Assembly: GCF_001462395.1 (NCBI RefSeq)
Contig: NZ_LNTB01000001.1
Coordinates: forward strand, 300,001-332,000
Origin: Pyrodictium occultum
Lineage (GTDB): Archaea; Thermoproteota; Thermoprotei_A; Sulfolobales; Pyrodictiaceae
Length of the DNA: 32,000 bases
Reading direction: 5' to 3'
The first letter of the stretch is position 1. The number at the start of each line of letters is the position of its first letter. The notes beneath the pieces were generated by a model, which was given only the letters and a program-made list of their open reading frames with translations, was not told the origin of the DNA and did no database searches. The position numbers and the translations under genes are program-made. Of the stretch, positions 2 to 24,353 are shown piece by piece.

Positions 2-1108
2 GCAACGGTCACCAGGACTGTGACCAGGACGGTGGCCACCGGTGCCACGGGCACCTGGGCCACCGCGGCTGGCACAGCCACCACCAAGCCGGCGCGGGAG
101 CTCCTGGTCTACGTCTACGAGGACTTCATGGCCTGGGGAGAAGACCCGAAGCTATTCGACAAGCTCGTGGAGAACTTCACCCGGGAGACCGGGATAAAGG
201 TGGTGCTCCGCAAGTTCAAAGGCGCCCGCTCCATGGTGGCCCAGGTCATAGCCGAGAAGAGGGTCGGCGCTAGGACAGCCGACGTCGTGGTGGGCGTTGA
301 CCCGCTGCTGCTCTCGGAGCTCAAGGCACGCGGGCTCGTGGAGTGCTACGCCTCGCCCCAGGCGCCGGCCCAGCTAGTCAGGGCCCTCGACCCGGAGGGC
401 TGCGCGACCCCGGTGGACTACGGGCTCATAGCACTGGTCTACGACCCCTCCAGGCTCAACGAGACCGAGAAGGCCATGCTCCGCGACGGGGTGACGCTGG
501 ACGAGCTGGTGAAGCTGGCCCCGAGGCTGGTAGTGGAGGACCCGACGCAGAGCAGCACGGGGCTCAACTTCCTCCTCTACACCATAGCCGTCTCCAGGAT
601 GGAGGGCAGGGACTGGAAGCAGCTCTGGAAGCAGCTGAAGAGCCGCGGCGTAATGGTGGCCCCCAGCTGGGGCGACGCCTACGACGAGTTCTACAGGGAG
701 GGGAGCCCCAGGGCGATAGTAGTGAGCTACGGCACCGACCCGGCCTACAGCGCCTGGTACAACGCCAGGAAGGGCCGCGGCGAGAAGCCCAGCATCGAGG
801 CCACCGTGCTGGTGGCCAACGGCTCCAGGGTGGGCTGGGTCCAGGTGGAGGGCGCGGCGGTGATCAAGGGGGCGCCCCTCGAGGAGGCTAGGAGGTTCGT
901 CGACTGGCTGCTCAGCCACGAGGTGCAGGACAGGATACCCACCAGCCAGTGGATGATGCCCGTCCGCGGCGACGCCAGGCTGCCAGGCTTCTACCGCTAC
1001 GCCATGGGGCTCGGCAGCGTCGACACCTTGGCTAACACTGGGCTCAGGGCCGGGCCGGGGGAGCTTGAGGAGTGGCTCCGCGACTGGCTGCTGATCATGA
1101 GCGGCTGA
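2..1108 (+). CDS. ABC transporter substrate-binding protein, TbpA/AfuA-like (thiamine / Fe3+ class); the 5' end lies outside the window
   Basis: The frame is open from nt 2. It begins with a Thr-rich surface linker (ATVTRTVTRTVATGATGT...), followed by an SBP-like body (LLVYVYEDFMAWG..., VVSYGTDPAYS...). It is followed, with overlap, by a 12-TM ABC permease. Confidence 0.7.
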   Translation, partial: ATVTRTVTRTVATGATGTWATAAGTATTKPARELLVYVYEDFMAWGEDPKLFDKLVENFTRETGIKVVLRKFKGARSMVAQVIAEKRVGARTADVVVGVDPLLLSELKARGLVECYASPQAPAQLVRALDPEGCATPVDYGLIALVYDPSRLNETEKAMLRDGVTLDELVKLAPRLVVEDPTQSSTGLNFLLYTIAVSRMEGRDWKQLWKQLKSRGVMVAPSWGDAYDEFYREGSPRAIVVSYGTDPAYSAWYNARKGRGEKPSIEATVLVANGSRVGWVQVEGAAVIKGAPLEEARRFVDWLLSHEVQDRIPTSQWMMPVRGDARLPGFYRYAMGLGSVDTLANTGLRAGPGELEEWLRDWLLIMSG

Positions 1109-2667
1109 GCCTCGGCAGGCTAGGCGGCGCCCTGGCCACGGCGGCGTGGCTGGTGGCGCTGCTCTACACCCTCCCCCTAGCCCTGGCCCTCGCCCTTTTC
1201 TGGCCCCCGGGCTGGCCCCCTCCCTTCAGCCTGCCCCGGGTGCTGGCCTGGACCCTCGCCCAGGCGGCCGCGAGCGCCACCCTGGCCGTCGCAGTGGGCT
1301 GGCCCCTCGGTGTCCTCGCCGGCTTCTACGGCTCCAGGGCGGCCAGGGCCGCGGTGGCCGCCAGCCTAGCCCCCTTCATGTCCCCCGTAGCGGCCGTCGC
1401 CGCGGGGATGAGGGCCCTCTACGGGGAGGGCGGGCTGGCCTCCAGGCTCCTCCCCTGGCTCGAGCCGCTGGCCAGGGGCTGGACCGGGGTGCTGGCGCTC
1501 CACAGCTACTTCAACATAGGCCTCGCCGCCGCGCTGGCTGCGGCCGCGGCGGGCTCCACCGAGGCCGCTGTGGCGGAGCACGCCCGGATGCTGGGGCTCC
1601 GGGGCGCCAGGCTCTGGCTGCGCGTCCTCCTCCCCCTCACCGCCAGGGTCGCGCTCTACGCCTGGGGGATAGCCTTCCTCTACTCCGCCACCAGCGCGGC
1701 GCCGCTCCTCGTGGAGGGCGCGGCGTACCGCTACTACACGCTCGAGGCCTGGCTCTACGTCGTCTACCGCGGCTTCCCCGGCCTGGCCGGCCTCGTCCCC
1801 GTCCTCGCCCTCCTGGAGCTGGGGGCCGCTGCCGCCGCCTCGATGCTCCTTCTGCGCGCCGCCCGGGGGCTCCCCTCCAGCCCGCTCGCCGCCCGGGGCG
1901 AGGGCTCGCTGCCCCTGAGCCGGGGCTGGAGGCTCGCCGCCGCCTCCTACTCGGCGCTGGTCACCGCCTACCTCTACGCCCCGGTGGCCGCCCTCGCCGT
2001 GCAGGCCGCGGGGGCGGATCCCGGCAGGCTGCTGGAGGCCGCGGCCGCGGGCCCGGGGCTGGCGGGGGCGGTGGCTAACAGCCTCGCCTACGCGGCCGCC
2101 GCCACCGCTCTCTCCCTACTTCTGGGGGTCCCCGCCTCGGGCGGGAGGCTCGCCGTGGCTGCGCTCTCCCTCGTGGCGGTGGCGCCCGTCGCCTACGGGG
2201 TCTCGGCCAGCCTCGCCTATTTCCGGCCCCTCTCCCGGCTCCTCGGCGAGGCCAACGCCTCCAGGCTCCTGATAGTGCTGGCCCACACGGCTGCGGGGCT
2301 CCCCCTGGCCAGCAGGGTGCTGGCCGAGGCCTGGGGGAGGCTCCAGCGGGAGGTGGGCGACACCATGCTCCTCCTCGGGCTCCGGGGCGCCAGGCTCCTC
2401 CGCCACATCCTCGCCGCCACGGCCCCCGTGGCCGCCATGGCAGCCGGGCTGGCGGCGGCCGCGAGCCTCGGGGAGTTCGGCGCGAGCATAGTGGTGTCGG
2501 TGCCGGCCACCTGGAGCATGACAGTGCTCGTCTACGAGCTCCTCTCGGCCGGGAGGCTGTTCCACGAGGCCTGCCTGGCGGCCCTCATCCTCGAGGCTAT
2601 GAGCCTCTCAGCCATACTCCTGGCGCAGGCGGCGGCGGGGAGGCTGGCTGGCCAGGGGCGCCTCTAG
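1072..2667 (+). CDS. ABC transporter permease, duplicated two-domain ThiP/FbpB-like type
   Basis: 531 aa, extremely hydrophobic and Ala/Leu-rich, with two repeated about 6-TM halves. It overlaps the stop of the binding-protein gene. No ATPase gene follows. The start codon is uncertain. Confidence 0.7.
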   Translation: MAPRLAADHERLSLGRLGGALATAAWLVALLYTLPLALALALFWPPGWPPPFSLPRVLAWTLAQAAASATLAVAVGWPLGVLAGFYGSRAARAAVAASLAPFMSPVAAVAAGMRALYGEGGLASRLLPWLEPLARGWTGVLALHSYFNIGLAAALAAAAAGSTEAAVAEHARMLGLRGARLWLRVLLPLTARVALYAWGIAFLYSATSAAPLLVEGAAYRYYTLEAWLYVVYRGFPGLAGLVPVLALLELGAAAAASMLLLRAARGLPSSPLAARGEGSLPLSRGWRLAAASYSALVTAYLYAPVAALAVQAAGADPGRLLEAAAAGPGLAGAVANSLAYAAAATALSLLLGVPASGGRLAVAALSLVAVAPVAYGVSASLAYFRPLSRLLGEANASRLLIVLAHTAAGLPLASRVLAEAWGRLQREVGDTMLLLGLRGARLLRHILAATAPVAAMAAGLAAAASLGEFGASIVVSVPATWSMTVLVYELLSAGRLFHEACLAALILEAMSLSAILLAQAAAGRLAGQGRL

Positions 2668-2744
2668 CGGCGGCTGCAGCGGCTAGAGCCTACGGCGGGT
2701 AACCGTAATCTACACCGGCGCCGCGCCACAGGGCCCCTGGGGGG

Positions 2745-3200
2745 ATGTTGGCGGGGAGGACGGGGCCGGAGCGCGAGGCCGTGGTCGACACCAGCGTGCT
2801 GCACGCCCTCCTAGTGGAGGAGGACCCCCACCACGGCCCGGCGGCCCTGCTGGCCTCGAGGATAGCGGCCGTGGTGCCGAGCAGCGTCGTCCACGAGCTG
2901 GTGTGGAGCCTGCGCCGCCGCCTCGGCGCCGCCGCGGCTGGCTCCAGGGTGGGCTGGCTCCTAGCCCGCGGCGTCAGGGTGGAGCCCGTGAGGCTCGATG
3001 ACGTGTGGTTCGCCCTCCGCGACCCGCGGCGCTACGAGGACCTCCTAGTGGTCTCGGTGGCCAGGCGCCTAGGCCTCCCCTTGGCGACCCTGGACCGGGG
3101 CATGGCCAGGCTCGCCGCCCGGCACGGGGTCGAGCTGCTCCCCATCCCCGGGGCCCCGGGGGCACATGGGAGGGCTGGCGAGGAGACAGGGCAGGCTTGA
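2745..3200 (+). CDS. PIN-domain ribonuclease (VapC-like toxin), with no adjacent antitoxin ORF
   Basis: 151 aa with the ordered acidic PIN residues: VVDTSV (D), VVHELV (E), YEDLLVVSVA (D), ATLDRG (D). Only 77 nt of non-coding sequence lies upstream. Confidence 0.7.
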   Translation: MLAGRTGPEREAVVDTSVLHALLVEEDPHHGPAALLASRIAAVVPSSVVHELVWSLRRRLGAAAAGSRVGWLLARGVRVEPVRLDDVWFALRDPRRYEDLLVVSVARRLGLPLATLDRGMARLAARHGVELLPIPGAPGAHGRAGEETGQA

Positions 3201-3202
3201 TC

Positions 3203-3408
3203 GTGATGGGGCATAGGGCCAACACGGCCAGGTGGCTCCGCCGCCACCTCTCCCGCACCCTGGTCGGCGAGCTGCATAGCCGCGGCCTCGCCGTGGCCGC
3301 CTGGACGGTGAACGACCCCCGGGGGCGAGGAGGCTCGCGGGAATGGGCGTGGACGTAATCGTAACCGACGCCCCCTGCGAGATAGCGGAGGCGCTGGCGG
3401 CTAGGTGA
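3203..3408 (+). pseudogene. Remnant of a glycerophosphodiester phosphodiesterase (GDPD) gene: C-terminal about 65 codons only, with a frameshift
   Basis: Frame 1 reads ...LVGELHSRGLAVAAWTVNDPRG. After a 1-nt slip in the c5g5 run (about 3316-3325) the next frame reads (A)RRLAGMGVDVIVTDAPCEIAEALAAR*. Together these give the canonical GDPD C-terminus (WTVND...GVDxIxTDxP). The N-terminal about 170 codons of a normal GDPD are absent. Confidence 0.55.
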
Positions 3409-4471
3409 CCACCTGCTCCAGCATCCCCCTCGCAGCCGCCTCCCTCAGCTCCCTAGCCACCCTCCTCCCCATGTACATGGGCTCGCTCCAGTAGAGGCTG
3501 GCGTAGGGCGTCTGGAGCCCCGTGTAGACGTTAGTGCCGGCCACTATCCTGCCGCTGAACTCGAACACCTTGTACTCCAGGCTCTCCGTCACCACCCCCT
3601 CCAGGCTGTAGGGGCCGACGAGCGGGTAGCCCGTCTCCCTCTCAACCGCCCTGGCGAACCTCTCCCCGTAGTCCAGCACCCTGGCCAGGAGGCTCTCCCT
3701 AGCCACCACCGGGACGTTGGCCACCACGGTGTAGCTGGGCTCTATGCCCAGCTCCTCGACCAGCCGGGGCGGGAGCCGCTGGAGCCCATCCACGTTGCTC
3801 TCCAGCCTCAAATCCATGCCCAGCAGCTCCACCCTCCCGTGGACAAGGCTGTTGAAGAAGTGGCTGTAGAGCCTCACCCCCACCACGTACTCCTGCACCA
3901 CAGCCCCCTGGGGCAGCGCCCCCTCAAGCCCCCGGGCCTCCCGGGGCGAGACCAGCCGGTAGCCCCGGCCCCCCTTCGCGCCCGGGAGTTTCACTATAAC
4001 CGGCGCCCCGGCCTCGGCCGCCTCCCCGAGGCTCCGGAACCTCCGCGGCGTCTCAATCCCGGCCTCCTCCAGGAGCCCCAGCTTCCTCTCCCAGTCAGCC
4101 TCTATCTCCAGCAGATACCTGTTCCCCAGCATGGGGAGCTCGAGCTCCAGCAGCCTCTCCGCGCCAACGTACTCTATCAGGCTGGCGTGGGGCACAAGCA
4201 CGGCGTTAGCCTCCCTAAGCTCCTCCACAACCCTGCCGCTCAGCAGCTCCCCCCACGAGTCCACAACCACCACGCGGCTGTAGAGCCACGGGAACCTAGA
4301 GTATATCGACTCGTAGTACCTCCTGGCGGCGAGGAGGATGGCCTCGACACCCTCGTCCCTGGCGCCGCGGAGCAGCTGGAGCGCCGAGTGGCTCGCCGGC
4401 ACAGCCAGCCTTACCCTGGAGGGGTCGTAGCCCCTAACCACCTCCCTCCCAGGGCTCCTAGCCCGGGCCAA
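3401..4471 (-). CDS. purP: 5-formaminoimidazole-4-carboxamide ribonucleotide (FAICAR) synthetase PurP, ATP-grasp
   Basis: 356 aa. The N-terminus (AVPASHSALQLLRGARDEGVEAILLA) and the ATP-grasp body (VIVKLPGAKGGRGY, QEYVVGV) match the archaeal PurP family layout. Confidence 0.8.
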   Translation of the reverse strand: MARARSPGREVVRGYDPSRVRLAVPASHSALQLLRGARDEGVEAILLAARRYYESIYSRFPWLYSRVVVVDSWGELLSGRVVEELREANAVLVPHASLIEYVGAERLLELELPMLGNRYLLEIEADWERKLGLLEEAGIETPRRFRSLGEAAEAGAPVIVKLPGAKGGRGYRLVSPREARGLEGALPQGAVVQEYVVGVRLYSHFFNSLVHGRVELLGMDLRLESNVDGLQRLPPRLVEELGIEPSYTVVANVPVVARESLLARVLDYGERFARAVERETGYPLVGPYSLEGVVTESLEYKVFEFSGRIVAGTNVYTGLQTPYASLYWSEPMYMGRRVARELREAAARGMLEQVVT

Positions 4472-4498
4472 CCCAGCAGCCCCAGGGGGTGCTGCCCA

Positions 4499-4538
4499 GG
4501 GCTCCTCCAGGGGGTAAAAAGAGGGCCCGGAGGAGCCC
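4499..4538 (-). promoter_or_regulatory. Putative purP promoter: TATA-like box enclosed by a perfect 10-bp inverted repeat
   Basis: gggctcctcc (4499-4508) and ggaggagccc (4529-4538) are exact reverse complements. They flank agggggtaaaaagagggccc, whose minus strand carries CTTTTTAC about 45 nt upstream of the purP ATG (4471). Confidence 0.35.
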
Positions 4539-4628
4539 GGGGGCCAGGAGCCGTGTGATGGAGTGGAGAACCGGGGATGGAGCGAGGAGAAAAACCCGGG
4601 AGGGCTGTAGGGCCGCCCCCGCCCAGCC

Positions 4629-5153
4629 TTAGCTGGTGCTGAGCACCTGGAAGTTGAACGCCACGGGCACGCTGTCGAACAGCATGCCCTCCTTGGCCTC
4701 GTAGTAGGCGGTGAAGCATAGGTATGATGTCCGGTTGCCGTCGGCGTCGAAGTCGTCGGTGTCCAGCACCACCACGGTGCTAGGCTTGTCGAGGCTCACC
4801 ATGCCCTTGGTGCTGTTGTGGCGGCAGTGGTCTATCATGACGGTGAAGTAGTCGAAGTAGTTCTTCAGCTGCTCGGCATTAGCCAGGGTTACCCCCAGCT
4901 TCACGATGTTGACGTCGTTCGGCTCGCGCCAGACTATTATGTAGCCCATGTCCTGGCTGCCCTGGGCGCCGGCGGCGGGGGAGACGCTGTGAATGAGGCT
5001 GTCGGTTATCTTCACGGGCTCGTTGGGCGCCTCGGCGCCGCCCACCGCGTAGAAGCTGTTCAGCGGGCTCCGGGTGGTGGCGAAGCCGGCTAGCAGGGCG
5101 AGGGCGGCAGCCGAAGCGACTAGGCCGGCCAGAGCCAGGGTCGTGTACCTCAC
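4629..5153 (-). CDS. Hypothetical exported / membrane-anchored protein
   Basis: 174 aa with a GTG start and an N-terminal hydrophobic segment (MRYTTLALAGLVASAAALALLAGFA). It has a beta-rich body with NST and NRT sequons. It is visibly less G+C-rich than its neighbours, with regular coding periodicity. Confidence 0.6.
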   Translation of the reverse strand: MRYTTLALAGLVASAAALALLAGFATTRSPLNSFYAVGGAEAPNEPVKITDSLIHSVSPAAGAQGSQDMGYIIVWREPNDVNIVKLGVTLANAEQLKNYFDYFTVMIDHCRHNSTKGMVSLDKPSTVVVLDTDDFDADGNRTSYLCFTAYYEAKEGMLFDSVPVAFNFQVLSTS

Positions 5154-5243
5154 GGCGTCGACCCCTCCAGGGGTTCCAGCATGAACTCGCTCGATATGGT
5201 TTGTGATGTATGACGTAGAAGAGGCTTTCCCCGCCCGGGGGGC

Positions 5244-5714
5244 TCACTCCCCGCGGCCGAGCATCTCCCGGTAGAGCCGCGCCGGGTCCTCCACGGGGAG
5301 CAGCGCGTAGGCTATGTCCTCGTCCCTCCCGCCCTCGATGAGGAGGTGGCGGTTCTCCCAGCCGAGGCAGCGGATGAGCACGTGCCTCCTCCCCTCAGCG
5401 CTGGAGATCTCCGCGAGAAAGCCGTCCACCAGCCTGGGGTGCAGCAGGCAGTCGAGGGCCGCCCGGAGGAGGCCGCGGAGCCTCTCCAGGTGCCCGGCCA
5501 GCTCCTCCTCCCCCGGCTCCCCCGCGCCGGCCTCGCGGTAGAGCCGGCGCAGGTCCTCAAGGTAGCCGGTGAGCAGCTCCGCGTAGGCCTCCGGGGCGTC
5601 CGCGAGAGCCTCCCGCACCAGCTCCTCCTCGCCCCGGCCGTGGATCCTCAGCAGGGCCCTCTCGAGCACGCTCCGAGCCTCCTCAACCAGCTCCTCGCGC
5701 CCCGGCAGAGGCAT
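5244..5714 (-). CDS. Hypothetical protein (helical, acidic, no recognisable family)
   Basis: 156-aa ORF with protein-like composition (EELVEEARSVLERALL..., RHVLIRCLGWENRHLLIEGG). The overlapping ORFs in other frames are Arg/Pro/Gly junk. Confidence 0.5.
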   Translation of the reverse strand: MPLPGREELVEEARSVLERALLRIHGRGEEELVREALADAPEAYAELLTGYLEDLRRLYREAGAGEPGEEELAGHLERLRGLLRAALDCLLHPRLVDGFLAEISSAEGRRHVLIRCLGWENRHLLIEGGRDEDIAYALLPVEDPARLYREMLGRGE

Positions 5715-5800
5715 CCCAAGCGTCCTCCAGCCCCCAGGGGCCAGGGGAGGGGTTTTGATACCACCCGGGGCCCCGAGGGGCCAGGGAGAGGGGAGACGCC

Positions 5801-6709
5801 ATGGAGCTGGGCCTAGTCTTCCTCGGCACCGGCGCCGCCCTGGCAGCCAGGCACCGCGGCCTCCCCTCCATAGCCCTCGTCTACCGCGGCAGCATAGTCC
5901 TCCTCGACTGCGGCGAGGGAACCCAGCACACCCTGGCCAGGGCCGGCCTAAGCCCCCTAAAGGTCGAGGCAGTGCTGATCACCCACCTCCACGGCGACCA
6001 CGTCCTCGGGCTCCCCGGCCTCCTCCAGACAATGGCCATGCAGGGCCGCAGGAGGCCACTCCTCGTAGCAGGCCCACCCGGCCTAAAGGAGCTGATCGAG
6101 GCAGCGTCAAAGCTCACCCACTGGCTCCCAAGCTACCCCATATACATCGCCGAGCCGGCACCCTGGCAGACCCTCCACCTCCCCAGCGGCCTAGAAGCAA
6201 AAACCTTCCCAGCCGACCACACCGTGCCAGCCCTAGGATATAGGATCCAGGAGCCCAGGAGAAAACCCAGAATAAACCTCGAGAAAGCACGGAAGCTAGG
6301 CCTACAGCCAGGACCCCAGCTAGCAAGACTACAGCGAGACGAGCCAGTAAGAATAGGCACCAAGATAATATACCCGGAAGACGTGGTAGAGGAGAAGCCA
6401 AGAGCATCAATAACTTACACCGGGGACACAAGGCCAAGCCAGGCAACGATAAAGGCAGCCAAACACACAACAATACTGATCCACGACTCCACCTTCACCA
6501 GCGAATACGCCCGCGAAGCCCACGAGAAAGGCCACAGCACAGCCAAGGACGCAGCAACAATAGCAAAGCAGGCGGGAGCACAGCTACTAATACTAACCCA
6601 CATCAGCGCCCGCTACAGGACAACACGCCCCCTACTCGACGAAGCCCGGAGAATATTCCCCAGGACAATAGCAGCAGAGGACCTAGCCAAACTACCAATA
6701 CGGCCATAA
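5801..6709 (+). CDS. rnz: Ribonuclease Z (tRNA 3' endonuclease, short ElaC form)
   Basis: The motifs LGTGAA...LLDCGEGTQHTL...ITHLHGDHVLGLPGLLQTM, ...GDTRPS..., LIHDSTF..., GHSTAKDAA..., LTHISARY give the full MBL/RNase Z motif set. A TATA-like ggttttgatacc lies about 45 nt upstream. Confidence 0.9.
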   Translation: MELGLVFLGTGAALAARHRGLPSIALVYRGSIVLLDCGEGTQHTLARAGLSPLKVEAVLITHLHGDHVLGLPGLLQTMAMQGRRRPLLVAGPPGLKELIEAASKLTHWLPSYPIYIAEPAPWQTLHLPSGLEAKTFPADHTVPALGYRIQEPRRKPRINLEKARKLGLQPGPQLARLQRDEPVRIGTKIIYPEDVVEEKPRASITYTGDTRPSQATIKAAKHTTILIHDSTFTSEYAREAHEKGHSTAKDAATIAKQAGAQLLILTHISARYRTTRPLLDEARRIFPRTIAAEDLAKLPIRP

Positions 6710-6743
6710 ACCCAGCCCCTCCGGGGTTGCGGGCTGGGGGTTT
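6708..6743 (+). terminator. Hairpin directly after the rnz stop codon
   Basis: cccagccc (6711-6718) pairs perfectly with gggctggg (6731-6738) around a 12-nt loop. It is flanked by aaa/ttt and followed by tttg. Confidence 0.4.
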
Positions 6744-6947
6744 GCCGGCTGTGTGTTTGGCCTGGTGTGGCTCGTCTCCGGCTTGTTGCTCCCCGTGATG
6801 TGGTGCTTCCGCCTGCTAGCAGTAAGGTTGTGAAGTCCCTGGTTCTCCAGCGTGGCGGGTGGCTGGCTGGGCTCGCCTCGCCGAGGCAGGGCTACAAGCC
6901 GCTGTTCATCTCCATGCTGTACCGGGGTGGGAGGCACCTCTACGCGA

Positions 6948-6967
6948 GGGCTGGGCTCTCCCAGCCC
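6948..6967 (-). terminator. Hairpin about 40 nt downstream of the hisI-fusion stop (end of the his cluster)
   Basis: gggctggg (6948-6955), ctct, cccagccc (6960-6967): a perfect 8-bp stem with a 4-nt loop. No U-run follows, so a terminator role is only inferred. Confidence 0.3.
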
Positions 6968-7007
6968 CAGGAGAATGTCCCCTTCTACGCCTTCTAGCCC
7001 TCGCCCT

Positions 7008-7814
7008 CTAGGCCCGGGGGGCCCGCAGCCTCAGCCCCGGCGGGTGCCCGGGGCTGGCCTCTATGAGCACGTCGACGCCCTCGGGGGCCTCGCCCTCGGG
7101 GGCGAGGAGGGCTGTCACGGCTGCGGGGGTCGCCGAGCGCTTCTCCGCCTCCTCCGCCAGCTTCTGGGCTGTGGCCGGGTCGGGGGCGTAGACTGCGACG
7201 CGGTCCAGCTCCCCCAGGGACTCGGGGACCCTGCCGCCCGCGGCGAGGTGGAGGCTTGCCTTCAGCCTCTGGGCCGCGAGGAGTGCTAGGAGCGAGCTGG
7301 GCCCTTCGGGGGCGAGGAGCGCCGTGACCCCTGCCCCCGCCCTGGCGCGTATCCTCTCGGCCAGGAGGCTTGCCGCCAGGGCTGCCAGGAGGGGGCTGGG
7401 CGGGGGCCTCCAGGTGGCGAGGGGGTGGGCCACCCTGCCGCCCTCGATCCTCGTGTATGGCCTCGTCTCCTCCAGTAGCCTCTCGAGCATCTCCCCCCTC
7501 CGGTCCGCCAGGTGGTTGTGGAAGCAGCTCCTCCTCCCCAGGTGGCAGACGTGCCTCCTCGGCGCGGCGACGTAGGCTGCCGCGTCCCGGTCGCAGTCGA
7601 GGATGACCTCCAGCACCTCGAGGACGCCGCCGCTGGTGGAGCCCTTGAGCCAGAGGCTGCCCCTGCTCCTGGAGTGGAAGTGGGCCAGCCCCGTCTCGGC
7701 TGTGAGCCTCAGCGCCTCCTCGCTGGCGTAGGCTAGCATGAGGGGCTCGCCGGTCACTGCGTCCACCACGGCTACGGGTACCAGCCTCCCCCTGGGGGCC
7801 TCGCCCTCAGCCAT
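7008..7814 (-). CDS. hisI: Phosphoribosyl-AMP cyclohydrolase (HisI) fused to an uncharacterised C-terminal domain of about 160 aa
   Basis: The N-terminal about 105 aa are HisI-like (VPVAVVDAVTGEPLMLAYASEEAL..AHFHSRSRGSLWLKGSTSGGV..ILDCDRDA...CHLGRRSCF). The rest (LERLLEETRPY...VTALLAPEG...VTALLAPEG...) has no HisE or other his-enzyme motifs. Confidence 0.8.
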   Translation of the reverse strand: MAEGEAPRGRLVPVAVVDAVTGEPLMLAYASEEALRLTAETGLAHFHSRSRGSLWLKGSTSGGVLEVLEVILDCDRDAAAYVAAPRRHVCHLGRRSCFHNHLADRRGEMLERLLEETRPYTRIEGGRVAHPLATWRPPPSPLLAALAASLLAERIRARAGAGVTALLAPEGPSSLLALLAAQRLKASLHLAAGGRVPESLGELDRVAVYAPDPATAQKLAEEAEKRSATPAAVTALLAPEGEAPEGVDVLIEASPGHPPGLRLRAPRA

Positions 7815-7820
7815 CCCTCC

Positions 7821-8441
7821 TCACCTCCGGAGGAGCCTCACCCAGTTCTCCAGCACCCTCCTGCCCTGCCTCCCGCTCCTCTCGGGGTGGAACTGGGTAC
7901 CGTAGACCGGCGGCGCCTCCACCACGGCAGCGTACAGGGTCTCGCCGTAGCGGCTGGCTGCGCAGACCCAGGGCTCCTCAACCCGGGTGTAGGCGTAGCT
8001 GTGGACGTAGTAGAAGTACTCGCCGTCCTCCACGCCCTCGAGGAGCCTGCAGTCCCTCCCGGGAACCCGGTGGACCCTGCTCCAGCCTATGTGGGGGAGC
8101 TTGGCCGCCACGAGCCGCTCCACCTTGCCGGGGAGGAGGGCCAGCCCGAAGCCCTGCTCCCCCGCCTCCCTCCCCTCGGTGAAGACCAGCTGGAGGCCCA
8201 GGCAGACGCCGAGCAGCTGGGCCCCCATGCGCAGCGCCTCCCCCAGCTCCCGGGCGCAGTCGTGGAGCCGGGCGGAGGCGGCCTGGTAGGCGCCGACCCC
8301 GGGGAGCACGATGCCGTCCCACTCGCCGGGGTTGCGGATGCACTCCACCACCACCGGCTCCGCGCCGGCGCGGCGTAGGCCGGAGACGATGCTGTAGATG
8401 TTGCCCACCCCGTACCTCACCACCGCTACCCTCGGCGCCAC
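7821..8441 (-). CDS. hisH: Imidazole glycerol phosphate synthase, glutamine amidotransferase subunit
   Basis: VAVVRYGVGNIYSI..., LPGVGAY, GVCLGLQL (catalytic Cys), PHIGW, YYVHSY, FHPERSG. GTG start. Confidence 0.9.
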   Translation of the reverse strand: MAPRVAVVRYGVGNIYSIVSGLRRAGAEPVVVECIRNPGEWDGIVLPGVGAYQAASARLHDCARELGEALRMGAQLLGVCLGLQLVFTEGREAGEQGFGLALLPGKVERLVAAKLPHIGWSRVHRVPGRDCRLLEGVEDGEYFYYVHSYAYTRVEEPWVCAASRYGETLYAAVVEAPPVYGTQFHPERSGRQGRRVLENWVRLLRR

Positions 8442-8725
8442 CCGGCCCTCGCCTCCAGCTCCTCCACCACGTCGCAGATGCTCAGCCCCCTGAGCCGGAG
8501 CACGACCATGAGGTGGTATAGGAGGTCGGCGGCCTCCTCCAGCAGCCTCTCCCTCGGCCCGGCCAGCGCCTCCACCATGGCCTCCGCGGCCTCCTCGCCG
8601 AGCTTCCTGGCCGCGAGCCGTGGGTCGCGGAGCAGCCTCGCGGTGTAGCTGCCCTCGGGCATCTCCCTGGCCCGCCCCGCTATTACCCGGTCGAGCTCCT
8701 CCAGGAACCCGGTGCAGCCCGTCAC
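8426..8725 (-). CDS. hisE: Phosphoribosyl-ATP pyrophosphatase
   Basis: FLEELDRVIAGRAREMPEGSYTARLL...KLGEEAAEAMVEA...EEAADLLYHLMVVL is the MazG-like HisE pattern. I trimmed the track ORF (8426..8899) to the GTG that forms a GTGA overlap with the hisD stop (8722-8725). The upstream part is Arg/Gly junk overlapping hisD. Confidence 0.75.
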   Translation of the reverse strand: MTGCTGFLEELDRVIAGRAREMPEGSYTARLLRDPRLAARKLGEEAAEAMVEALAGPRERLLEEAADLLYHLMVVLRLRGLSICDVVEELEARAGWRRG

Positions 8726-9990
8726 CTCCCCCCGCCCCTCTCCAGCCGCCCCGCGTAGTACTCTATGCTCCTGGCGTGCCTGGTGAAGCCCTCCAGCCTC
8801 GCCAGCTCGGCCGCCGCCTCGGCGTACTCCTCGCCCAGCCCCGGCTCGGCGTAGGCCACGGGCCTCAGGAAAGTGTAGACGCCGAGCCCGCCCCTCCACC
8901 TTGCAGCGCCCCCGGTGGGGAGGACGTGGCTGGGCCCGTAGGCGTAGTCCAGCAGCGCCGGCGGGACCCCGAGGCTGACGAGCCCGGCGGGCGGCCGGGC
9001 CTCCAGCAAGGGCCCCGGGTCCCGGAGGTAGGCCACCAGGTGCTCCGGCGCCATCCTGGAGACTAGCTCCAGCGCCTCCCCGAGCCCCGGGGTGACTGCC
9101 ACCGCCAGGCCCCCTATCTCCCCGGCCGCCTCCCTCCTCAGGATCCTGTAAACCTCCTCCGCCAGGCCCCGGGAGGGGGTCGCCAGCAGCGAGAGGCTGA
9201 GGGGGCCGTGCTCAGCCTCGGCAAGCATGTCCAGCGCCACCTGCACCGGGTCGGCGGACTCGTCTGCCACCACCGCTAGCTCCGTGGGCCCCGCGATCAT
9301 GTCGACGCCGACCACGCTGGATACCAGGAGCTTCGCCGCCTGCACGTAGGGGCTCCCCGGCCCCACCACCATGTCCACCTTCTCCACCGGCTCGGCGCCG
9401 TAGGCCAGCGCCGCCACCGCCTGGGCGCCGCCCAGCGCGTAGACCGCGTCGGCCCCCGCCAGGTAGGCGGCTGCCAGCACAGCCGGGTGGACGGGGCTCC
9501 CCCCGCAGCCGCTCCTGCAGGGCGGGGAGGCCACCACCACCCTGCGGCAGCCCGCGACCCTGGCGGGGACCACGGTGTGGACCACGGTGGAGGGGTAGGG
9601 GTGAAGCCCCCCGGGCGCGTAGACCCCTACCCTCTCCACGGGGTGCCAGCGGAGCCGGGCGCCGGGCGCCCCGGCCTCCGGGGGGAGGGTGGAGGAGTGG
9701 TAGCGGCGGAGGGCCTCGACGGCCCTCTCCAGCGCCTCCACCGCCCGGGAGGGGAGCGCGTCCAGGGCCTGGCTCATCTCCTCCCTGCCCAGCCTCGGGT
9801 CCTCGAGGCCCACCCCGTCGAACCTCTCGCTGTACTCCCTCGCCGCCTCGTAGCCGCGGCGCCGGACGTCCTCGACTATCGGCCTAACCCTCTCAACGTA
9901 CTCCTCGAGGCTGTAGCTCCTCCCGAGGAGCTCCTCCAGCTCCTCGGCGCCCGGGCCCCGGGGCCACTCCGCGTAGAGGATGCGCGGCAC
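8722..9990 (-). CDS. hisD: Histidinol dehydrogenase
   Basis: 422 aa with ...YAPGG..PYPSTV..., GPTELAVVADESADP, LDMLAEAEHGP, ...HVLPTGGAAR.... It abuts the hisF stop. Confidence 0.9.
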   Translation of the reverse strand: MPRILYAEWPRGPGAEELEELLGRSYSLEEYVERVRPIVEDVRRRGYEAAREYSERFDGVGLEDPRLGREEMSQALDALPSRAVEALERAVEALRRYHSSTLPPEAGAPGARLRWHPVERVGVYAPGGLHPYPSTVVHTVVPARVAGCRRVVVASPPCRSGCGGSPVHPAVLAAAYLAGADAVYALGGAQAVAALAYGAEPVEKVDMVVGPGSPYVQAAKLLVSSVVGVDMIAGPTELAVVADESADPVQVALDMLAEAEHGPLSLSLLATPSRGLAEEVYRILRREAAGEIGGLAVAVTPGLGEALELVSRMAPEHLVAYLRDPGPLLEARPPAGLVSLGVPPALLDYAYGPSHVLPTGGAARWRGGLGVYTFLRPVAYAEPGLGEEYAEAAAELARLEGFTRHARSIEYYAGRLERGGGR

Positions 9991-10857
9991 CTAGAGCCTC
10001 ACCTCCACGCCCTTCTCGGCCAGGTACCTCTTAACCTCCCCTATGCTGAGCACCCCGTAGTGGAAGACGCCGGCCGCCAGCGCCGCGTCGGCCCCGGCCA
10101 GGGTGAACGCCTCGAGGAAGTGCCTCGGCTCCCCGGCGCCCCCGCTGGCTATCACCGGCACGTCCACCGCCTCCACCACCGCCCTGGTGAGCTCTATGTC
10201 GTAGCCCATCCTGGTCCCGTCCCTGTCTATGCTGGTGAGGAGTATCTCCCCCGCCCCCAGCTCGGCGGCCCTCCGGGCCCACTCGACGGCGTCGAGCCCG
10301 GTCGCGGCCCTCCCCCCGGAGACGTAGACCTCCCAGCCGCTCCTCGTCCTCCCCGTGCGCCTCGCGTCGATAGCGACCACCACCGCCTGGCTGCCGTACT
10401 CCCTGGCGGCCTCAGCCACCAGCCCCGGGTTCCTCACCGCGGCCGTGTTTACCGAGACCTTGTCTGCGCCGCTGCCGAGGAGACGGTCGAAGTCCCTGAG
10501 GCCGCGGACGCCACCGCCCACGGTGAAGGGTATCGAGACCACCGAGGCCACGTCGCGGACGAGGCTGTAGAGGGGCTCCCTCTGCTCAGGCGTGGCGCTG
10601 ATATCCAGGAAGACCAGCTCGTCCGCCCCCTCCTCCTCGTAGCGGGCCGCTAGTTCCACGGGGTCCCCGGCGTCGCGGAGCCCCCGGAACCTGACCCCCT
10701 TGACCACCCTTCCCCCCGCGACGTCGAGGCAGGGGATTATCCTGCGGGCGGGCTGCCTGGAGCGGGTGGCGAGGAGAGCGTCTACCCATGCAATAGCCGC
10801 GGCCACCCCCGTGGAGCGGTGCCTGCCGGAGACGAGTCCACGGGCCCAGGGGCCCAC
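9991..10857 (-). CDS. hisF: Imidazole glycerol phosphate synthase, cyclase subunit
   Basis: [45 protein letters not shown]...SVNTAAV..., IASGGAG. The only in-frame start upstream of RIIPCLDV is the ATG at 10857, giving an unusual N-terminal extension of about 38 aa. Confidence 0.88.
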
Positions 10858-10869
10858 CGGAAGCCCCTG

Positions 10870-11394
10870 CTATAACCCCTTCCCCCGGCCCCTCCTCGGC
10901 GGCCTCGGGCCGAGGGCCTTGGCGAGGCACCGGGGCTGGGGGTTGAAGGCGGGGACCCTCCTCCGGTACTCGAGGTACGCCTCGCCGAACCTCTCCAGGC
11001 TCTCCCTCTCGTCCAGCACCACGGCCAGGGCGAGGACAAGTACAGCCTCAGCCACCGCCAGGGCCACGGCGCCGGGCTCGGCGAGCAGGAGGGCTACGCC
11101 CAGCGGGAGCCAGGCCAGGAAGAAGTGCATGGGGTGCCTCATGCAGGAGTAGGGCCCCACGGTGACCAGCCGGTCCAGCTCGCCGAAGCCCCTCCCGGGG
11201 CTGCTCTTCCCGTAGACGGCCAGGTAGCGGCCGGTGACGGCCGCGGCGCGGAGCACCACGAGGAGCAGCAGGGCCCCGGCGGCGCGGCAGGCCAGGGGGC
11301 AGCAGCATCCAGCCCTCAGGGCGCGGCCGGCGAGGGGCAGGGCGGCTATCATCGCCAGCCAGGCGAGGCCCCGCACGGCGTTGCTGATCCTCAA
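10870..11394 (-). CDS. Membrane methyltransferase of the ICMT/PEMT (isoprenylcysteine carboxyl / phospholipid methyltransferase) type
   Basis: Multi-TM protein with the family C-terminal signature LVTVGPYSCMRHPMHF...DERESLERFGEAYLEYRRRVP. It is embedded in the his gene string, 12 nt upstream of hisF. Confidence 0.65.
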   Translation of the reverse strand: MRISNAVRGLAWLAMIAALPLAGRALRAGCCCPLACRAAGALLLLVVLRAAAVTGRYLAVYGKSSPGRGFGELDRLVTVGPYSCMRHPMHFFLAWLPLGVALLLAEPGAVALAVAEAVLVLALAVVLDERESLERFGEAYLEYRRRVPAFNPQPRCLAKALGPRPPRRGRGKGL

Positions 11395-11480
11395 GGCTCC
11401 CCGCTCCAGCCAGCGTCTTCCTCCTGTGGCCGCGTTGGAGCTAAGGCTGTGATACCGCAGCCCCCTGGACGGGCTACCCG

Positions 11481-14794: not shown

Positions 14795-15538
14795 CTAGAG
14801 CCCCGGCATCCTCCTGCTCATCCCCGGCTTGGTGAGGTGTATCAGCGCCTCAACCTCCTCGACGCCGCTCGTCTCCCTCCACTCCTCCCCCACCACCGCC
14901 ACAGCGGCCACCGCCTCCAGCCGGGCCCGGGCCCGCTCCACCAGGAGCCGGAGCGCCCTGAGGGTGCGGCCGGTCTCCACGATGTCGTCCACCACAAGCA
15001 CCCGGTCGCTCCTCCCCAGCGTGCCCCTGGGTATGCAGAAGCTCGGCTCCCCCGGGCTGCAGTCGTAGCCCTCCAGCCCGGGGCGGCGGCGCCTGGCGAC
15101 CGTGAACGGGGTCTCAAGCGCGAGGCTGAGGCTGGTCGCCAGCGGTATCCCCGAGGCCTCCGGCACGAGGATCCTCGTAACCCCCCGGCCCTGGAGCCTC
15201 CTCGTGTAGTAGAGGGTCGCCAGCAGCAGGTAGAGGGGGTCCGTCAGCACTATGCTGGTGTCGAGCACCCCGCCGGTCTCAGCCATCCTCTCGGCCAGCG
15301 CCCTGCGGGGGTCGGCGAGCCTCCAGAGGCCCTCCAGGATAGCCCCCGCCTTCTCCGGGCCCGGGAGGCTCCTCCCGGTGACGTAGCGGGAGAGGAGGGG
15401 CGCCGGCACCCCCGTCGCCTTGGAGAGCTCCCTGTAGCTGTACCTCCTCTTCGCCAGCCGGAGCGCGGCCGCCACCACCGTGGATAGCTGGGCGCGCTCC
15501 AGCCTCCCGCCCCGCTTCCCAGGCATCCCGGTCTCCAC
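14795..15538 (-). CDS. HTH DNA-binding domain fused to a type I phosphoribosyltransferase domain (PurR/GfcR-like putative PRPP-sensing regulator)
   Basis: The N-terminus is an HTH (YSYRELSKATGVPAPLLSRYVTGRSLP). The C-terminus is a PRTase with the PRPP loop RVLVVDDIVETGRTLRAL. Confidence 0.75.
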   Translation of the reverse strand: METGMPGKRGGRLERAQLSTVVAAALRLAKRRYSYRELSKATGVPAPLLSRYVTGRSLPGPEKAGAILEGLWRLADPRRALAERMAETGGVLDTSIVLTDPLYLLLATLYYTRRLQGRGVTRILVPEASGIPLATSLSLALETPFTVARRRRPGLEGYDCSPGEPSFCIPRGTLGRSDRVLVVDDIVETGRTLRALRLLVERARARLEAVAAVAVVGEEWRETSGVEEVEALIHLTKPGMSRRMPGL

Positions 15539-15554
15539 GCCCCCCGGGGTCTCG

Positions 15555-15611
15555 TTAACACGGCTGTTTTAACAAGGAGCGCTCCACGCGTTATAGAACC
15601 CGCTTAATAAC
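15555..15611. promoter_or_regulatory. Divergent promoter region with three AT-rich boxes
   Basis: gttaacacggctgttttaac (15554-15573). Its minus-strand TTAAAA lies about 27-34 nt from the ATG at 15538, which suggests a leaderless transcript. ttatagaa (15591-15598) and cttaataa (15603-15610) lie about 40-55 nt upstream of the ATG at 15650. Confidence 0.4.
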
Positions 15612-15649
15612 CGCCCCGGGGCCCCGGCCCGCCATGGGTGCAGGCCTGG

Positions 15650-20002: not shown

Positions 20003-20289
20003 CCCCTCCACCGCCCCGTGGCCAGCCTCTCGACCGCCTCGACGAGCCTCTCCACGAGCCCCAGGGCCTCCTCCTATCAACCAGGCCCTAGACCCGCTCA
20101 GCGCGGCGTAGCCACTCACAGCCAGCCCCGCCGCCCGGACCCCGCTCCGCAGCCCTCCCCGCGTCACCCCGCGCCAGCGCCTCCCGCGCCTCCCCAAGAG
20201 CCAGCCGGGCGGCCTCCACCAGGCCCCGCGCAGCAACCCCCCGGGGGCGCGCCGCTGAGGAGGGAGAGCACGTACTCGTCAACACTCAT
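19999..20289 (-). pseudogene. Decayed PaREP1/HEPN-like helical protein gene (at least two frameshifts)
   Basis: Minus-strand pieces in three frames join into one helical protein: MSVDEYVLSLLSGAP / RGVAARGLVEAARLALGEAREALARGDAGRAAE / RVRAAGLAVSGYAALSGS / EALGLVERLVEAVERLATGRWRG*. The L..A...L..GD...AAE...A core resembles archaeal PaREP1/HEPN proteins. The family assignment comes from pattern memory only. Confidence 0.35.
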
Positions 20290-20860: not shown

Positions 20861-20953
20861 CTTCCAATTCCATTTATTTGATTCCGAAGAGCGAGAAGGA
20901 GCGCGCCTGCTCCTCCGAGCCGTAGTGCTCCCGATTCTATCAATTCCTCTTCG
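20861..20953. promoter_or_regulatory. AT-rich core with four RATTCY direct repeats and a small GC hairpin (candidate bidirectional promoter or unwinding element)
   Basis: cttccaattccatttatttgattccgaa (20861-20888) is the most AT-rich tract I see in the window. Repeats: AATTCC 20866-71, GATTCC 20880-85, GATTCT 20933-38, AATTCC 20942-47. A hairpin ggagc/gctcc spans 20898-20913. Confidence 0.35.
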
Positions 20954-21302: not shown

Positions 21303-21371
21303 CTGGTGCTTCTGCTGGGTGCTGTGTTGCCGGTTCTGTGCCTCCTCATCCTCTCTGCGGTGGGGGTTGTC

Positions 21372-24350: not shown

Positions 24351-24353
24351 CCT

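Follow-up and report, generated by a model that had tools for sequence, protein, structure and literature searches.

A strand-switching compositional island at the 3' end of rnz in Pyrodictium occultum looks like one-strand mutational damage tied to transcription

At the end of the RNase Z gene (rnz) of Pyrodictium occultum, a 105 °C archaeon, the plus strand passes from an A/C-rich to a G/T-rich composition. Does this inversion mark a genetic element, or is it the trace of mutation, and if so, on which strand and by what process? The question was followed through a window of 32,000 nucleotides (the whole stretch of DNA that was analysed), in which an earlier note had placed an inversion at the rnz stop codon and given it the polarity of another near 21 kb. 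The inversion is real, it is centred on the stop codon, and its polarity is that of the 21 kb locus. Its best explanation is a compositional island of ~1-2 kb generated by strand-asymmetric point mutation, rather than any repeat, mobile element or RNA gene. The rnz locus is laid out as follows:

5801-6709, plus strand: rnz (RNase Z, CF15_01665), from its ORF, Pfam Lactamase_B_2/tRNase Z and a 100% match to a P. occultum protein
6100-6709, plus strand: left arm, the A/C-rich, T-poor, lower-G+C part of rnz, from base counts and amino-acid changes
6700-6712, unstranded: switch point, with the stop TAA (6707-6709) inside the A/T-rich box GGCCATAAACCC, from the sequence and a comparison with other promoter regions
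6711-6738, plus strand: imperfect hairpin CCCAGCCC(N12)GGGCTGGG followed by G clusters, from the sequence and folding
6715-6900, plus strand: right arm, G/T-rich and A-poor, from base counts and an A-free run
6767-6997, plus strand: cas6 remnant (CF15_01670) of 76 codons, from Pfam Cas6_N, structure alignment and third positions
7008-7814, minus strand: hisI, a weak continuation of the right arm, from four-fold sites

The background is strongly G/C-biased: third positions in normal window genes are ~4% A and ~4% T, and silent sites in the other window genes are 93% G/C, with A and T each near 4%. The left arm (6100-6709; A208 C205 G136 T61) is 34% A, 34% C, 22% G and 10% T, with a G+C content of 52-57%, and 6710-6900 contains A15 C56 G72 T48. 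Two hand counts in the note, A25 C17 G14 T4 for 6421-6480 and A0 C14 G28 T18 for 6721-6780, are exact. A third-position A fraction above 0.09 is found in only two of the 31 window genes, rnz (0.32) and hmgA (0.18, at the 21 kb locus), and high third-position T is confined to the ORF to the right of rnz, the cas6 remnant (0.23 overall, 0.47 in its first 30 codons). The longest A-free run in the window is 83 nt (6715-6797) and the second is 61 nt (21287-21347), one in each of the two G/T arms; the mean longest run in shuffled sequence is 54.5 nt. Absolute keto skew of at least 0.35 in 100-nt windows is almost confined to the same two loci. Relative to other genes, four-fold sites in the patches (rnz codons 101-302 and the last 90 codons of hmgA) go from 39% to 4-11% G and from 3% to ~50% A, with T staying at 1-4%; C is also down, from 53% to 40%. 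CpG depletion in the arms is only modestly stronger (0.55-0.66 vs 0.80) and G>A changes occur after every base, somewhat more commonly after C or T; CpG-specific deamination was rejected. A scan for R-loop-forming sequences does not discriminate at 70% G+C.

One assembly from an independent read set is 100% identical to the window over 4629-8899 and another is 99.94% identical over 4629-11413; neither differs from it at any position inside 6100-6900, and a DRR667394 contig matches 21059-32000 at 99.97%. Because the independent assemblies agree with the window, an assembly artefact is ruled out; they are also too alike to yield polymorphisms within the arms.

The rnz product presents the HxHxDH motif of the metallo-beta-lactamase fold as HLHGDH, matches Pfam Lactamase_B_2 (1.2e-21) and Lactamase_B_4 tRNase Z, corresponds at 100% to the P. 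occultum protein named Ribonuclease Z in UniRef, and matches Hyperthermus and Pyrodictium orthologues at 64-67% over its full length. The shift in codon usage that the note described within this gene persists on a recount of the whole: four-fold sites carry A in 12 of 67 cases in codons 1-100 and in 51 of 105 in codons 101-302 (Fisher p=4e-5), and comparison with ten other window genes gives a chi-square of 438 (p=1e-94). G is depleted at four-fold sites over the entire gene (10-13%) and T is near 0 throughout; along the gene, 5' to 3', C drops from 75% to 31% and A climbs from 14% to 54%. The four-fold skew is flat over the entire length, at -0.71 to -0.81, and the A:C ratio alone changes; the left boundary of the patch is gradual, spread over ~300 nt. 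The protein is affected as well. Amino-acid replacements specific to P. occultum in codons 101-302 comprise 13 G>A, no A>G and 2 C>T (p=2e-4, 7e-3); the first 100 codons hold 5 lineage-specific changes, which are unbiased. Relative to three relatives, codon positions 1-2 show A up, G down and a slight T-to-C shift in codons 101-302 only. Since the amino-acid changes are mainly G>A, the skew of rnz points to mutation and away from codon preference.

What lies to the right of the stop is not the anonymous G/T arm of the note: it is the 5' remnant of a cas6 gene on the plus strand. Its product matches Pfam Cas6_N (E=1.9e-11, profile positions 3-63) and aligns with residues 12-74 of the S. solfataricus Cas6 structures 3ZFV and 4ILL (289-293 aa). 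Because the ORF has 76 codons and matches only the N-terminal part of Cas6 proteins that are ~290 aa long, it is a remnant; an intact Cas6 endoribonuclease gene, with two ferredoxin-like domains, ~240-290 aa and a C-terminal glycine-rich loop, was considered and rejected on the same length. Against 5.8e9 proteins it matches only itself. No array-like tandem or direct repeats were found in the window, and no further cas domain in the ORFs scanned or genes called; a CRISPR-Cas locus, which would bring a repeat-spacer array and more cas genes, was rejected on these results. In the first 30 codons of the remnant, third-position T rises from 0.04 to 0.47 and C falls from 0.50 to 0.20, with A at 0 (p=2e-12), the mirror image of the rnz patch. 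The ORF stops 11 nt short of the 3' end of hisI, whose four-fold sites, read on the plus strand, have 0.00 A, 9-12% T and more G than C; its third-position G+C is otherwise normal.

The second locus repeats the polarity seen at rnz, A/C-rich over 20000-20870 and G/T-rich over 21280-22100:

20003-20870, plus strand: left arm of locus 2, gene-free and A/C-rich, from composition and periodicity
20861-21285, unstranded: centre of locus 2, ~400 bp, with the inverted 15-nt motif AAAnnGAATTGGnAG (found post hoc) at both bounds
21280-22100, plus strand: right arm of locus 2, G/T-rich, from the composition of the hmgA 3' part and its flank
21372-22670, minus strand: hmgA, with its ~240 last codons inside the right arm

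The left arm is C-rich on the outside and A-rich towards 20870, has a 3-nt periodicity in 20450-20750 and gives no Pfam match. The copies of AAAnnGAATTGGnAG lie at 20861-20875 on the minus strand and 21271-21285 on the plus strand, each with G clusters outward of it, and the centre contains the A/T box CCATTTATTTGA. All the sharp A/C-to-G/T switches sit on an A/T-rich box with G clusters outward of it. Four-fold sites in hmgA codons 341-432 are 51% A and 4% G on the sense strand; the protein, too conserved to reveal bias, shows no excess divergence in the patch. A decayed copy of a neighbouring gene in 20003-21371 was excluded by tblastn: the genes that neighbour the loci in L083, L084, L085 and L087, among them the nitroreductase adjoining hmgA in L083, gave zero matches. 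The skew extends into non-coding DNA, running 90 nt past the hmgA stop, through the 870-nt gene-free arm and across a 55-nt spacer; this continuation argues for mutation rather than codon choice.

Relatives carry the same signature. In Hyperthermus butylicus the 3' ends of rnz and hmgA have the same patches: four-fold sites in its rnz codons 201-302 are A.40 C.46 G.09 T.05 (last third in P. occultum: A.49 C.39 G.11 T.01), and its hmgA goes from 39% T and 8% A in the first third to 39% A and 8% T in the last. Six lineage-specific changes fall in codons 201-302 of H. butylicus rnz (G>A 4), as against one in codons 1-200. Among four relatives, 21 of 26 genes have a lower keto skew at four-fold sites in their last third than in their first (Wilcoxon p=4e-5), a drift along the sense strand from G/T-rich to A/C-rich; there is no such drift in 79 bacterial rnz genes. 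Two loci, the patches at the orthologous 3' ends in H. butylicus and the family-wide 5'-to-3' drift together uphold the note's argument for a recurring process over a one-off accident. The possibility that it raised against itself, a general property of 3' ends or convergent gene pairs, does not hold in P. occultum, where the patches affect 2 of 31 genes and 2 of the window's 4 convergent junctions and where the window genes other than rnz, the cas6 remnant and hmgA, about 28-29 in number, have no positional trend; it survives in weaker form along the genes of the relatives. A further 7.2 kb of P. occultum holds no patch, and the literature searched, including the P. occultum genome paper, yielded no description of such patches in Pyrodictium.

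The motifs common to the G/T arms do not signify homology. Smith-Waterman alignments of the arms (10 comparisons, 200 dinucleotide shuffles) give z from -0.9 to 3.4, not clearly above the shuffles, with a best match of ~14 nt, and a repeat search returned only 14-31 nt matches at 70-90% identity. A repeat family or mobile element of which the arms would be copies was rejected, there being no alignable copies above composition and only the 15-nt inverted motif at locus 2. GGGGTTG, present 16 times vs 5.1 expected, is yet scattered across the whole window and was dropped as an arm marker. The hairpin reported after the rnz stop is present (CCCAGCCC pairing with GGGCTGGG), but shuffled sequence folds just as well (z=0.22). 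Rfam at its gathering threshold gives no match in the whole window and, at E<=1 over 19950-21450, one chance miRNA match only; a search for tRNAs found none, and folding is unexceptional (z 0.2-0.6). Searches of the island for an RNA family, a replication-origin motif or a conserved small protein all came up empty.

We favour, tentatively, strand-asymmetric mutation of the deamination type, tied to transcription units, with transcription the most likely cause. What the data show is which strand changed and in which direction, that RNase Z itself was altered, and that the pattern recurs at another locus and in another genus; for the mechanism we infer a promoter, an antisense transcript and a step of single-strand damage. 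The switch probably marks the boundary between rnz and cas6, and probably a bidirectional promoter there. Left of 6710, the minus strand has gained T from C and, to a lesser extent, from G and A, and rnz therefore displays G>A on the plus strand; right of 6710, it is the plus strand that has gained T likewise, seen as C>T in the cas6 remnant. In both arms the T-enriched strand points away from the switch in its 5'->3' direction, and the switch itself lies where the rnz unit ends and the cas6 remnant starts, on GGCCATAAACCC, the sole A/T-rich box of the spacer. This box could be the TATA box of the cas6 remnant and, should it fire both ways, as archaeal TATA boxes frequently do, that of an antisense transcript into rnz as well; the non-template strand would then be the plus strand rightward and the minus strand leftward. 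Displaced single-stranded DNA at 105 °C would be expected to deaminate fast (C to U, A to hypoxanthine), and damage repeated over evolutionary time would enrich the displaced strand in T and G, an effect that a genome-wide pull towards G/C at silent sites would mask elsewhere. 

Several observations weigh against transcription. The transcription-unit orientation of the skew fits the cas6 remnant and the relatives' genes, but rnz is skewed contrary to what its own transcription should produce; the strand enriched in rnz and hmgA is the one that serves as template for the known gene, and an antisense transcript must therefore be assumed to account for the sign. Roughly 15 other promoter regions in the window are without such arms, so that the two loci must be special somehow. 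The four-fold skew of rnz does not decay from 6710, and the box at 6700-6712 is weaker than typical promoter boxes in the window. Because four-fold C falls while A rises, transversions or a second force are needed. Convergent transcripts could also terminate at these A/T boxes, and the assignment of the sense strand would then be reversed. A bolder reading, doubtful in our estimation, is that P. occultum (and H. butylicus) has fixed hot spots with a chronically exposed strand, at which as many as half of the silent sites in an essential gene, and a dozen of its amino acids, have been changed by heat deamination, with a strand flip at a promoter-like point.

The low-G+C tracts (~6050-7000 and, likewise, 20300-22100) might instead have a history unlike that of their surroundings, imported by homologous recombination from an unsampled, less G+C-rich member of the Pyrodictiaceae, perhaps along with a cas module and with rnz as the anchor, or left behind by the G+C enrichment of P. 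occultum. The strand pattern would then be the one typical of the family, in which the A/C-rich 3' end of one gene precedes the G/T-rich 5' end of the next; given the 5'-to-3' drift in relatives, a head-to-tail junction would indeed carry an A/C-to-G/T step. Relative to contig L083, synteny breaks at both loci, csa3, a CRISPR-associated gene, lies 3.5 kb downstream of rnz in H. butylicus, the near equality of last-third rnz composition in the two genera fits, and the island has a fairly sharp edge near 7000, where cas6 is truncated against a hisI with normal third positions. The genome mean G+C of 63.4% vs ~70% in the window implies, moreover, that lower-G+C tracts must be common elsewhere. 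We nonetheless regard such a mosaic or relic origin as unlikely. There is no visible donor: both parts of RNase Z have the same closest relatives, in none of the 119 best matches among 5.8e9 proteins is the C-terminal part closer, and silent-site identity to relatives is saturated along all of rnz, stepless. Silent-site A (~50%) exceeds that of every relative, the protein changes are P. occultum-specific and G>A-biased, the left boundary is gradual, and the hmgA patch lacks excess protein divergence.

A less probable source still is DNA metabolism, not transcription. At the switch, DNA would repeatedly be nicked or broken, or replication would start there and abort; outward synthesis both ways would displace 5'-ended strands that then suffer heat damage, or lay down error-prone new ones, leaving strand-coordinated mutation clusters that flip at the centre. 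A bidirectional origin, or strand displacement starting at a centre, would have this polarity (A/C left, G/T right), A-richness increases inward in rnz, hmgA and the 20.0-20.9 kb arm, and both loci are at rearrangement junctions. T was gained from C, G and A on one strand, as deamination combined with depurination would be expected to produce. Against this, ordinary 5'->3' resection of a double-strand break should give the reverse polarity, and the rnz skew follows the limits of the gene, with no decay. The same genes are affected in another genus, H. butylicus, so that a gene-linked cause fits better than a random fragile site. The crenarchaeal origin-recognition box, searched as the consensus TCCAGTGGAAAC, which a divergent box could escape, has no match with up to 2 mismatches in the 32 kb; orc1/cdc6 and whiP are absent from the Pfam matches of the larger window ORFs and of the genes called on overlapping contigs, and a replication origin was rejected on both grounds. 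The window ORFs scanned include no reverse transcriptase, deaminase or integrase. It is very unlikely, finally, that selection shaped the arms, whether for small hydrophobic proteins or G/U-rich RNAs encoded on the G/T strands (for example 6753-6833 plus, 20658-20873 minus and 21279-21425 plus) or for an A/C-rich, unstructured 3' part of the rnz and hmgA messages. Outward ORFs with transmembrane-like sequence begin at the inner end of three arms and have similar N-termini (AGWGxxGC...GL.VW; peptide alignment z 2.3-2.8), the 15-nt motif is common to both inner ends of locus 2, and the periodicity of 20450-20750 has a weak counterpart in 6700-6850. But the 72-aa minus-strand ORF of the 20 kb arm has no homologue in 1.84e9 representative proteins, and stops break the minus-strand frame of that arm. 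Ten candidate small ORFs are absent from a collection of 15e9 proteins, a look-up reliable for the ATG-start ORF only, GTG and TTG starts having been translated as V or L. Composition alone makes hydrophobic ORFs in G/T-rich DNA and long open frames in T-poor DNA, the arms are much longer than the ORFs, Rfam and folding give no support, and selection on the message would leave the G>A protein changes of rnz unexplained.

If the mutational reading is true, such islands are a sequence-only readout of strand-specific DNA damage in an organism that ranks among the most heat-loving in culture, and local mutation pressure can beat the genome-wide G/C pull and alter the protein sequence of an essential enzyme. 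Concrete candidate sites for antisense transcription or R-loops would then be 6.7 kb and 20.9-21.3 kb, and the silent-site drift within genes (G/T-rich 5', A/C-rich 3') would be a simple statistic for all Pyrodictiaceae. The fixed hot spots, if real, would be an evolution-scale natural counterpart of strand-coordinated hypermutation and a record of persistent single-stranded DNA (R-loops, displacement bubbles) above 100 °C, with the very high silent-site G/C elsewhere as an active counter-force. In annotation, the tracts here that are poor in T or in A give rise to long spurious ORFs and to hydrophobic mini-ORFs, from which genes should not be called without further evidence.

One known counterpart is the mutational strand asymmetry associated with transcription (Beletskii & Bhagwat 1996, cited in PMC12999951). 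In human genes, C>T, A>G and G>T are in excess on the non-transcribed strand; the excess is anchored at the 5' end and greatest close to where the unit begins, a 'transcript-centric mutation gradient' (PMC5054492). The P. occultum island shares with it strand-specific transitions that would track transcription units, a sense-strand G/T enrichment at gene 5' ends that declines 5' to 3' (the cas6 remnant and the relatives' genes), and extension into non-coding, presumably transcribed DNA. It differs in its far larger amplitude (silent A or T 50% vs 4% in neighbours), its limitation to two loci in ~39 kb, the template-strand enrichment of rnz and hmgA, and the altered protein sequence. In Pyrococcus furiosus, a single TATA box fires both ways and yields antisense RNA into the upstream gene of a head-to-tail pair (PMC6640164); the junction of rnz with cas6, with one A/T box at the switch, is of the same kind, but its candidate box is weak, and no mutational consequence of antisense transcription is described in that work.

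The polarity and the pairing of skews resemble the switch at a replication origin, the leading-type strand being G- and T-rich on each side. Unlike an origin, however, the island extends over 0.2-1 kb and not a whole replichore, two or three switches fall within 15 kb, the amplitude is an order of magnitude higher, and neither the origin-recognition-box motif nor orc1/cdc6 (in the ORFs scanned) accompanies it. Strand-coordinated clustered mutation is known from the G>A hypermutation of retroviral DNA and from single-stranded-DNA clusters at breaks in yeast and cancers, and such clusters are ascribed to damage of single-stranded DNA. The runs of C>T on one strand that are G>A on the other, with a strand flip at a point, are alike; the polarity is opposite to that of a resected break, no deaminase gene is nearby in the ORFs scanned, the sequence context is weak, and the pattern is a long-term evolutionary equilibrium under selection, not a single event. 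With islands of horizontal transfer it has in common a drop of 15-20 points in G+C, a boundary inside a gene, an adjoining cas gene remnant and a location at synteny breakpoints; unlike them, it has a gradual boundary, no detectable donor and an A/T enrichment confined to one strand (A without T, then T without A). Set beside these systems, the island of P. occultum looks like one-strand mutational damage tied to transcription, and not like a new genetic element.

Across the rnz stop codon the plus strand switches from an A/C-rich arm (6100-6709) to a G/T-rich arm (6715-6900), and the base counts by which the earlier note described this inversion are reproduced exactly on recount. In a window of ~70% G+C (the genome paper gives 63.4% for the whole P. 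occultum genome), G+C goes from ~0.72 down to 0.52-0.57 across 6100-6700, and A-T skew rises to as much as +0.63, turning to -0.44 directly past the stop. The window's two longest A-free runs, of 83 nt (6715-6797) and 61 nt (21287-21347), both lie inside G/T arms; the longest run in shuffles averages 54.5 nt, against the 83 nt observed. Since two independent read-set assemblies match the window (100% over 4629-8899; 99.94% over 4629-11413, with zero differences within 6100-6900; 99.97% over 21059-32000), an assembly artefact is ruled out as the source of the skew. The observation is borne out and is clearly non-random. The genes flanking the switch are:

5801-6709, plus strand: rnz (CF15_01665), RNase Z with metallo-beta-lactamase and tRNase Z domains, 100% identical to a P. 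occultum protein
6767-6997, plus strand: cas6 remnant (CF15_01670), matching the Cas6 N-terminal domain (E=1.9e-11)

Differences between the assemblies lie elsewhere: a G-run of variable length at 7016 that alters the hisI C-terminus (268 vs 273 aa), four transitions (10818, 10937, 11316, 11524), a few indels at 15527-15630, and, at 11413, ~980 bp found in the DRR667394 assembly (6786-7768 of contig L081) and absent from the window. This last segment, in a his-gene neighbourhood with two small called ORFs, reflects either divergence between strains or stocks or a region that was collapsed. Contigs of both assemblies end at 4629-4655. A 174-aa signal-peptide-like ORF at 4629-5153 (minus strand), with no Pfam match and lower G+C at codon positions 1-2, should by locus-tag order be CF15_01655, one of five cannula-protein genes according to the genome paper.

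Four-fold sites in the window's ordinary genes are C 53%, G 39%, T 4% and A 3%, and in 98% of these genes' two-fold purine-ending codons the last base is G. Codons 101-302 of rnz have A 49%, C 39%, G 11% and T 1% (chi-square 438 against this background); the last 92 codons of hmgA, in a second island of the same polarity, have A 51%, C 40%, G 4% and T 4%. Only these two of 31 genes exceed an A share of 0.09 at third positions, so the shift is not the organism's codon usage. On the sense strand it is mainly G to A, with some C lost and no T gained; rnz is G-depleted throughout at four-fold sites (10-13%), with A taking over from C toward its 3' end. To the right of the stop, the first 30 codons of the cas6 remnant are the mirror of rnz (third-position T 0.47, C 0.20, A 0.00; p=2e-12). 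The remnant's 76 codons, which end 11 nt short of the hisI 3' end, align with residues 12-74 of the Sulfolobus solfataricus Cas6 proteins (289-293 aa), with a clearly conserved core; no CRISPR array and no further cas genes were found within the window. A weak continuation of the skew reaches hisI (plus-strand four-fold A 0.00, T 9-12%), whose third positions otherwise remain G/C. A 67-aa called gene at 3206-3409 (plus strand; L090 10462-10665), with a glycerophosphodiester phosphodiesterase (GDPD) domain match and short for that family, may be another gene remnant.

The RNase Z protein itself has been affected. In an alignment of 30 RNase Z proteins, sites where P. occultum alone differs from the majority residue were scored by the fewest nucleotide steps needed at codon positions 1-2. 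There are 21 such changes in codons 101-302, and they call for G>A 13 times, A>G never and C>T twice (binomial p=2e-4 and 7e-3); the five in codons 1-100 are unbiased. Compared with three relatives, and in the skewed part of rnz only, A is up and G down at positions 1 and 2, with a slight T to C shift at position 2. The skew extends over non-coding DNA as well. Codon preference as the cause does not fit the G>A-biased protein changes, the position 1-2 shifts or the non-coding skew; the pattern fits a directional mutation pressure on the strand opposite the rnz sense strand, by C>T and to some extent by A>G and G>T. The hmgA protein is too highly conserved for any protein-level effect to show. 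Silent sites are saturated in all comparisons at hand, because the best non-self relatives of this RNase Z (Pyrodictium sp. metagenome bins, Hyperthermus butylicus) are only 64-67% identical.

The second island changes sign twice (plus-strand reading unless stated):

20000-20870: A/C-rich stretch, C-dominated first, then more and more A
~20870-20950: first flip
20950-21130: G/T-rich stretch
21130-21280: neutral, very G+C-rich stretch
21280: second flip, G/T-rich onward, fading by ~22100
21372-22670, minus strand: hmgA, last 92 codons skewed

Within it, 20003-21371 (1.37 kb in an otherwise compact genome) holds no recognisable gene and no Rfam match; DRR667394 contigs end near 21059-21090 in this stretch, and G+C reaches 0.88 in a core at 21130-21190. 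A 3-nt periodicity at 20450-20750 may reflect a plus-strand ORF free of T and rich in P, T and S, or else a minus-strand frame of transmembrane-like segments interrupted by stops, if either ever coded. The G/T arms, which the earlier note proposed aligning for homology, are alike only in composition by repeat searches and shuffled local alignments, and GGGGTTG, offered there as a motif common to them, is enriched across the whole window (16 copies vs 5.1 expected from shuffles, through coding regions on both strands). The sole specific element common between arms is an inverted 15-nt motif, AAAnnGAATTGGnAG, at the inner ends of this island (20861-20875, minus; 21271-21285, plus), where it bounds a 400-bp centre with G clusters outward of each copy; it was picked out post hoc (2 matches vs 0.01 expected).

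The skew patch is not general in P. occultum. Two of the four convergent junctions in the window lack one. The 28 window genes other than rnz, hmgA and the cas6 remnant hold third-position A and T at 3-5% at every relative position, 29 genes tested have no trend from first to last third, hisI and moaE are normal in composition at their 3' ends adjoining the islands, and 7.2 kb more upstream of the window holds no patch. H. butylicus has a matching patch in the last 100 codons of rnz (four-fold A 40%, G 9%), reaching 250 nt into the downstream spacer, up to a G-cluster element; most amino-acid changes peculiar to the H. butylicus RNase Z fall inside the patch and are again mainly G>A, and its hmgA goes from T 39%/A 8% to A 39%/T 8% between the first and last thirds. 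At 6909-7280 of contig L085 this non-coding, A/C-rich stretch of 250 nt is followed by the G-cluster element, GGTTTGAGGGGGTTGGGGGCGG, an arrangement resembling GGGGTTGCGGGCTGGGGGTTTG directly past the P. occultum rnz stop; CRISPR-associated csa3 lies 3.5 kb downstream. Among 26 genes pooled from four Pyrodictiaceae relatives at five loci (L083, L085, L087, L088, L092), four-fold G+T minus A+C skew drops from first to last third in 21 (mean 0.26, Wilcoxon p=4e-5). The sense strand passes from G/T-rich early in the gene (pooled first third A.17, C.34, G.27 and T.22) to A/C-rich late (last third A.25, C.40, G.23 and T.12). No such drift is present in 79 bacterial rnz genes. L083, the closest relative from metagenomes, has rnz and hmgA on one strand at a distance of 3.7 kb (1078-7610), and downstream of its rnz comes the orthologue, at 68% identity, of the gene that diverges from rnz in P. 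occultum. Compared with the window (5244-6709, 21372-22670), this order makes rnz inverted relative to that neighbour and both skewed loci synteny breakpoints.

In every arm the T-enriched strand runs 5' to 3' away from the switch point, a polarity expected of the non-template strands where transcripts diverge, or of strands that synthesis from a centre would displace, and the reverse of what 5' to 3' resection at a break should leave. A replication- or repair-based centre suits this polarity but is improbable: no origin motif was found in the window and no orc1/cdc6 among the scanned ORFs, and the same genes are affected in another genus. A mosaic or relic island is somewhat less unlikely, given a right edge that is sharp where cas6 meets hisI, the breakpoints, and the nearly identical composition of the H. 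butylicus patch, but no donor is detectable, and the changes in the protein are directional and confined to the lineage. The least probable reading, with little to support it, is selection for hidden ORFs or RNAs. Small, outward-facing hydrophobic ORFs of vague mutual likeness do start at three arm starts; a search of 1.84 billion representative proteins gave no homologue for the longest, and hydrophobic ORFs arise in G/T-rich DNA from composition alone.

Tentatively preferred, at somewhat less than even odds, is transcription-linked damage to the displaced strand around a bidirectional promoter. A putative promoter at the switch would fire both ways, and the strand displaced on either side would be damaged at 105 °C, visibly so against the push to G/C at silent sites elsewhere in the genome. 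Every sharp switch coincides with an A/T-rich box that has G clusters outward of it; at locus 1 the box separates rnz from the cas6 remnant, at the place expected for a cas6 promoter. Against this model, other promoters in the window lack such arms, the rnz skew is flat along the gene and does not decay away from the switch, A has replaced C as well at four-fold sites, and the same boxes could be terminators. It draws on arm polarity and the boxes together with two precedents. In human genes the strand that is not transcribed has an excess of C>T, of A>G and of G>T, most markedly toward the unit start (PMC5054492), and in Pyrococcus furiosus many antisense transcripts come from one TATA box firing bidirectionally (PMC6640164), in the same head-to-tail arrangement as rnz and the cas6 remnant. 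The island is best filed as a strong, local, strand-asymmetric mutation bias tied, by a mechanism we infer, to transcription units: not a new element, and of a kind already known, unusual in its strength and locality.
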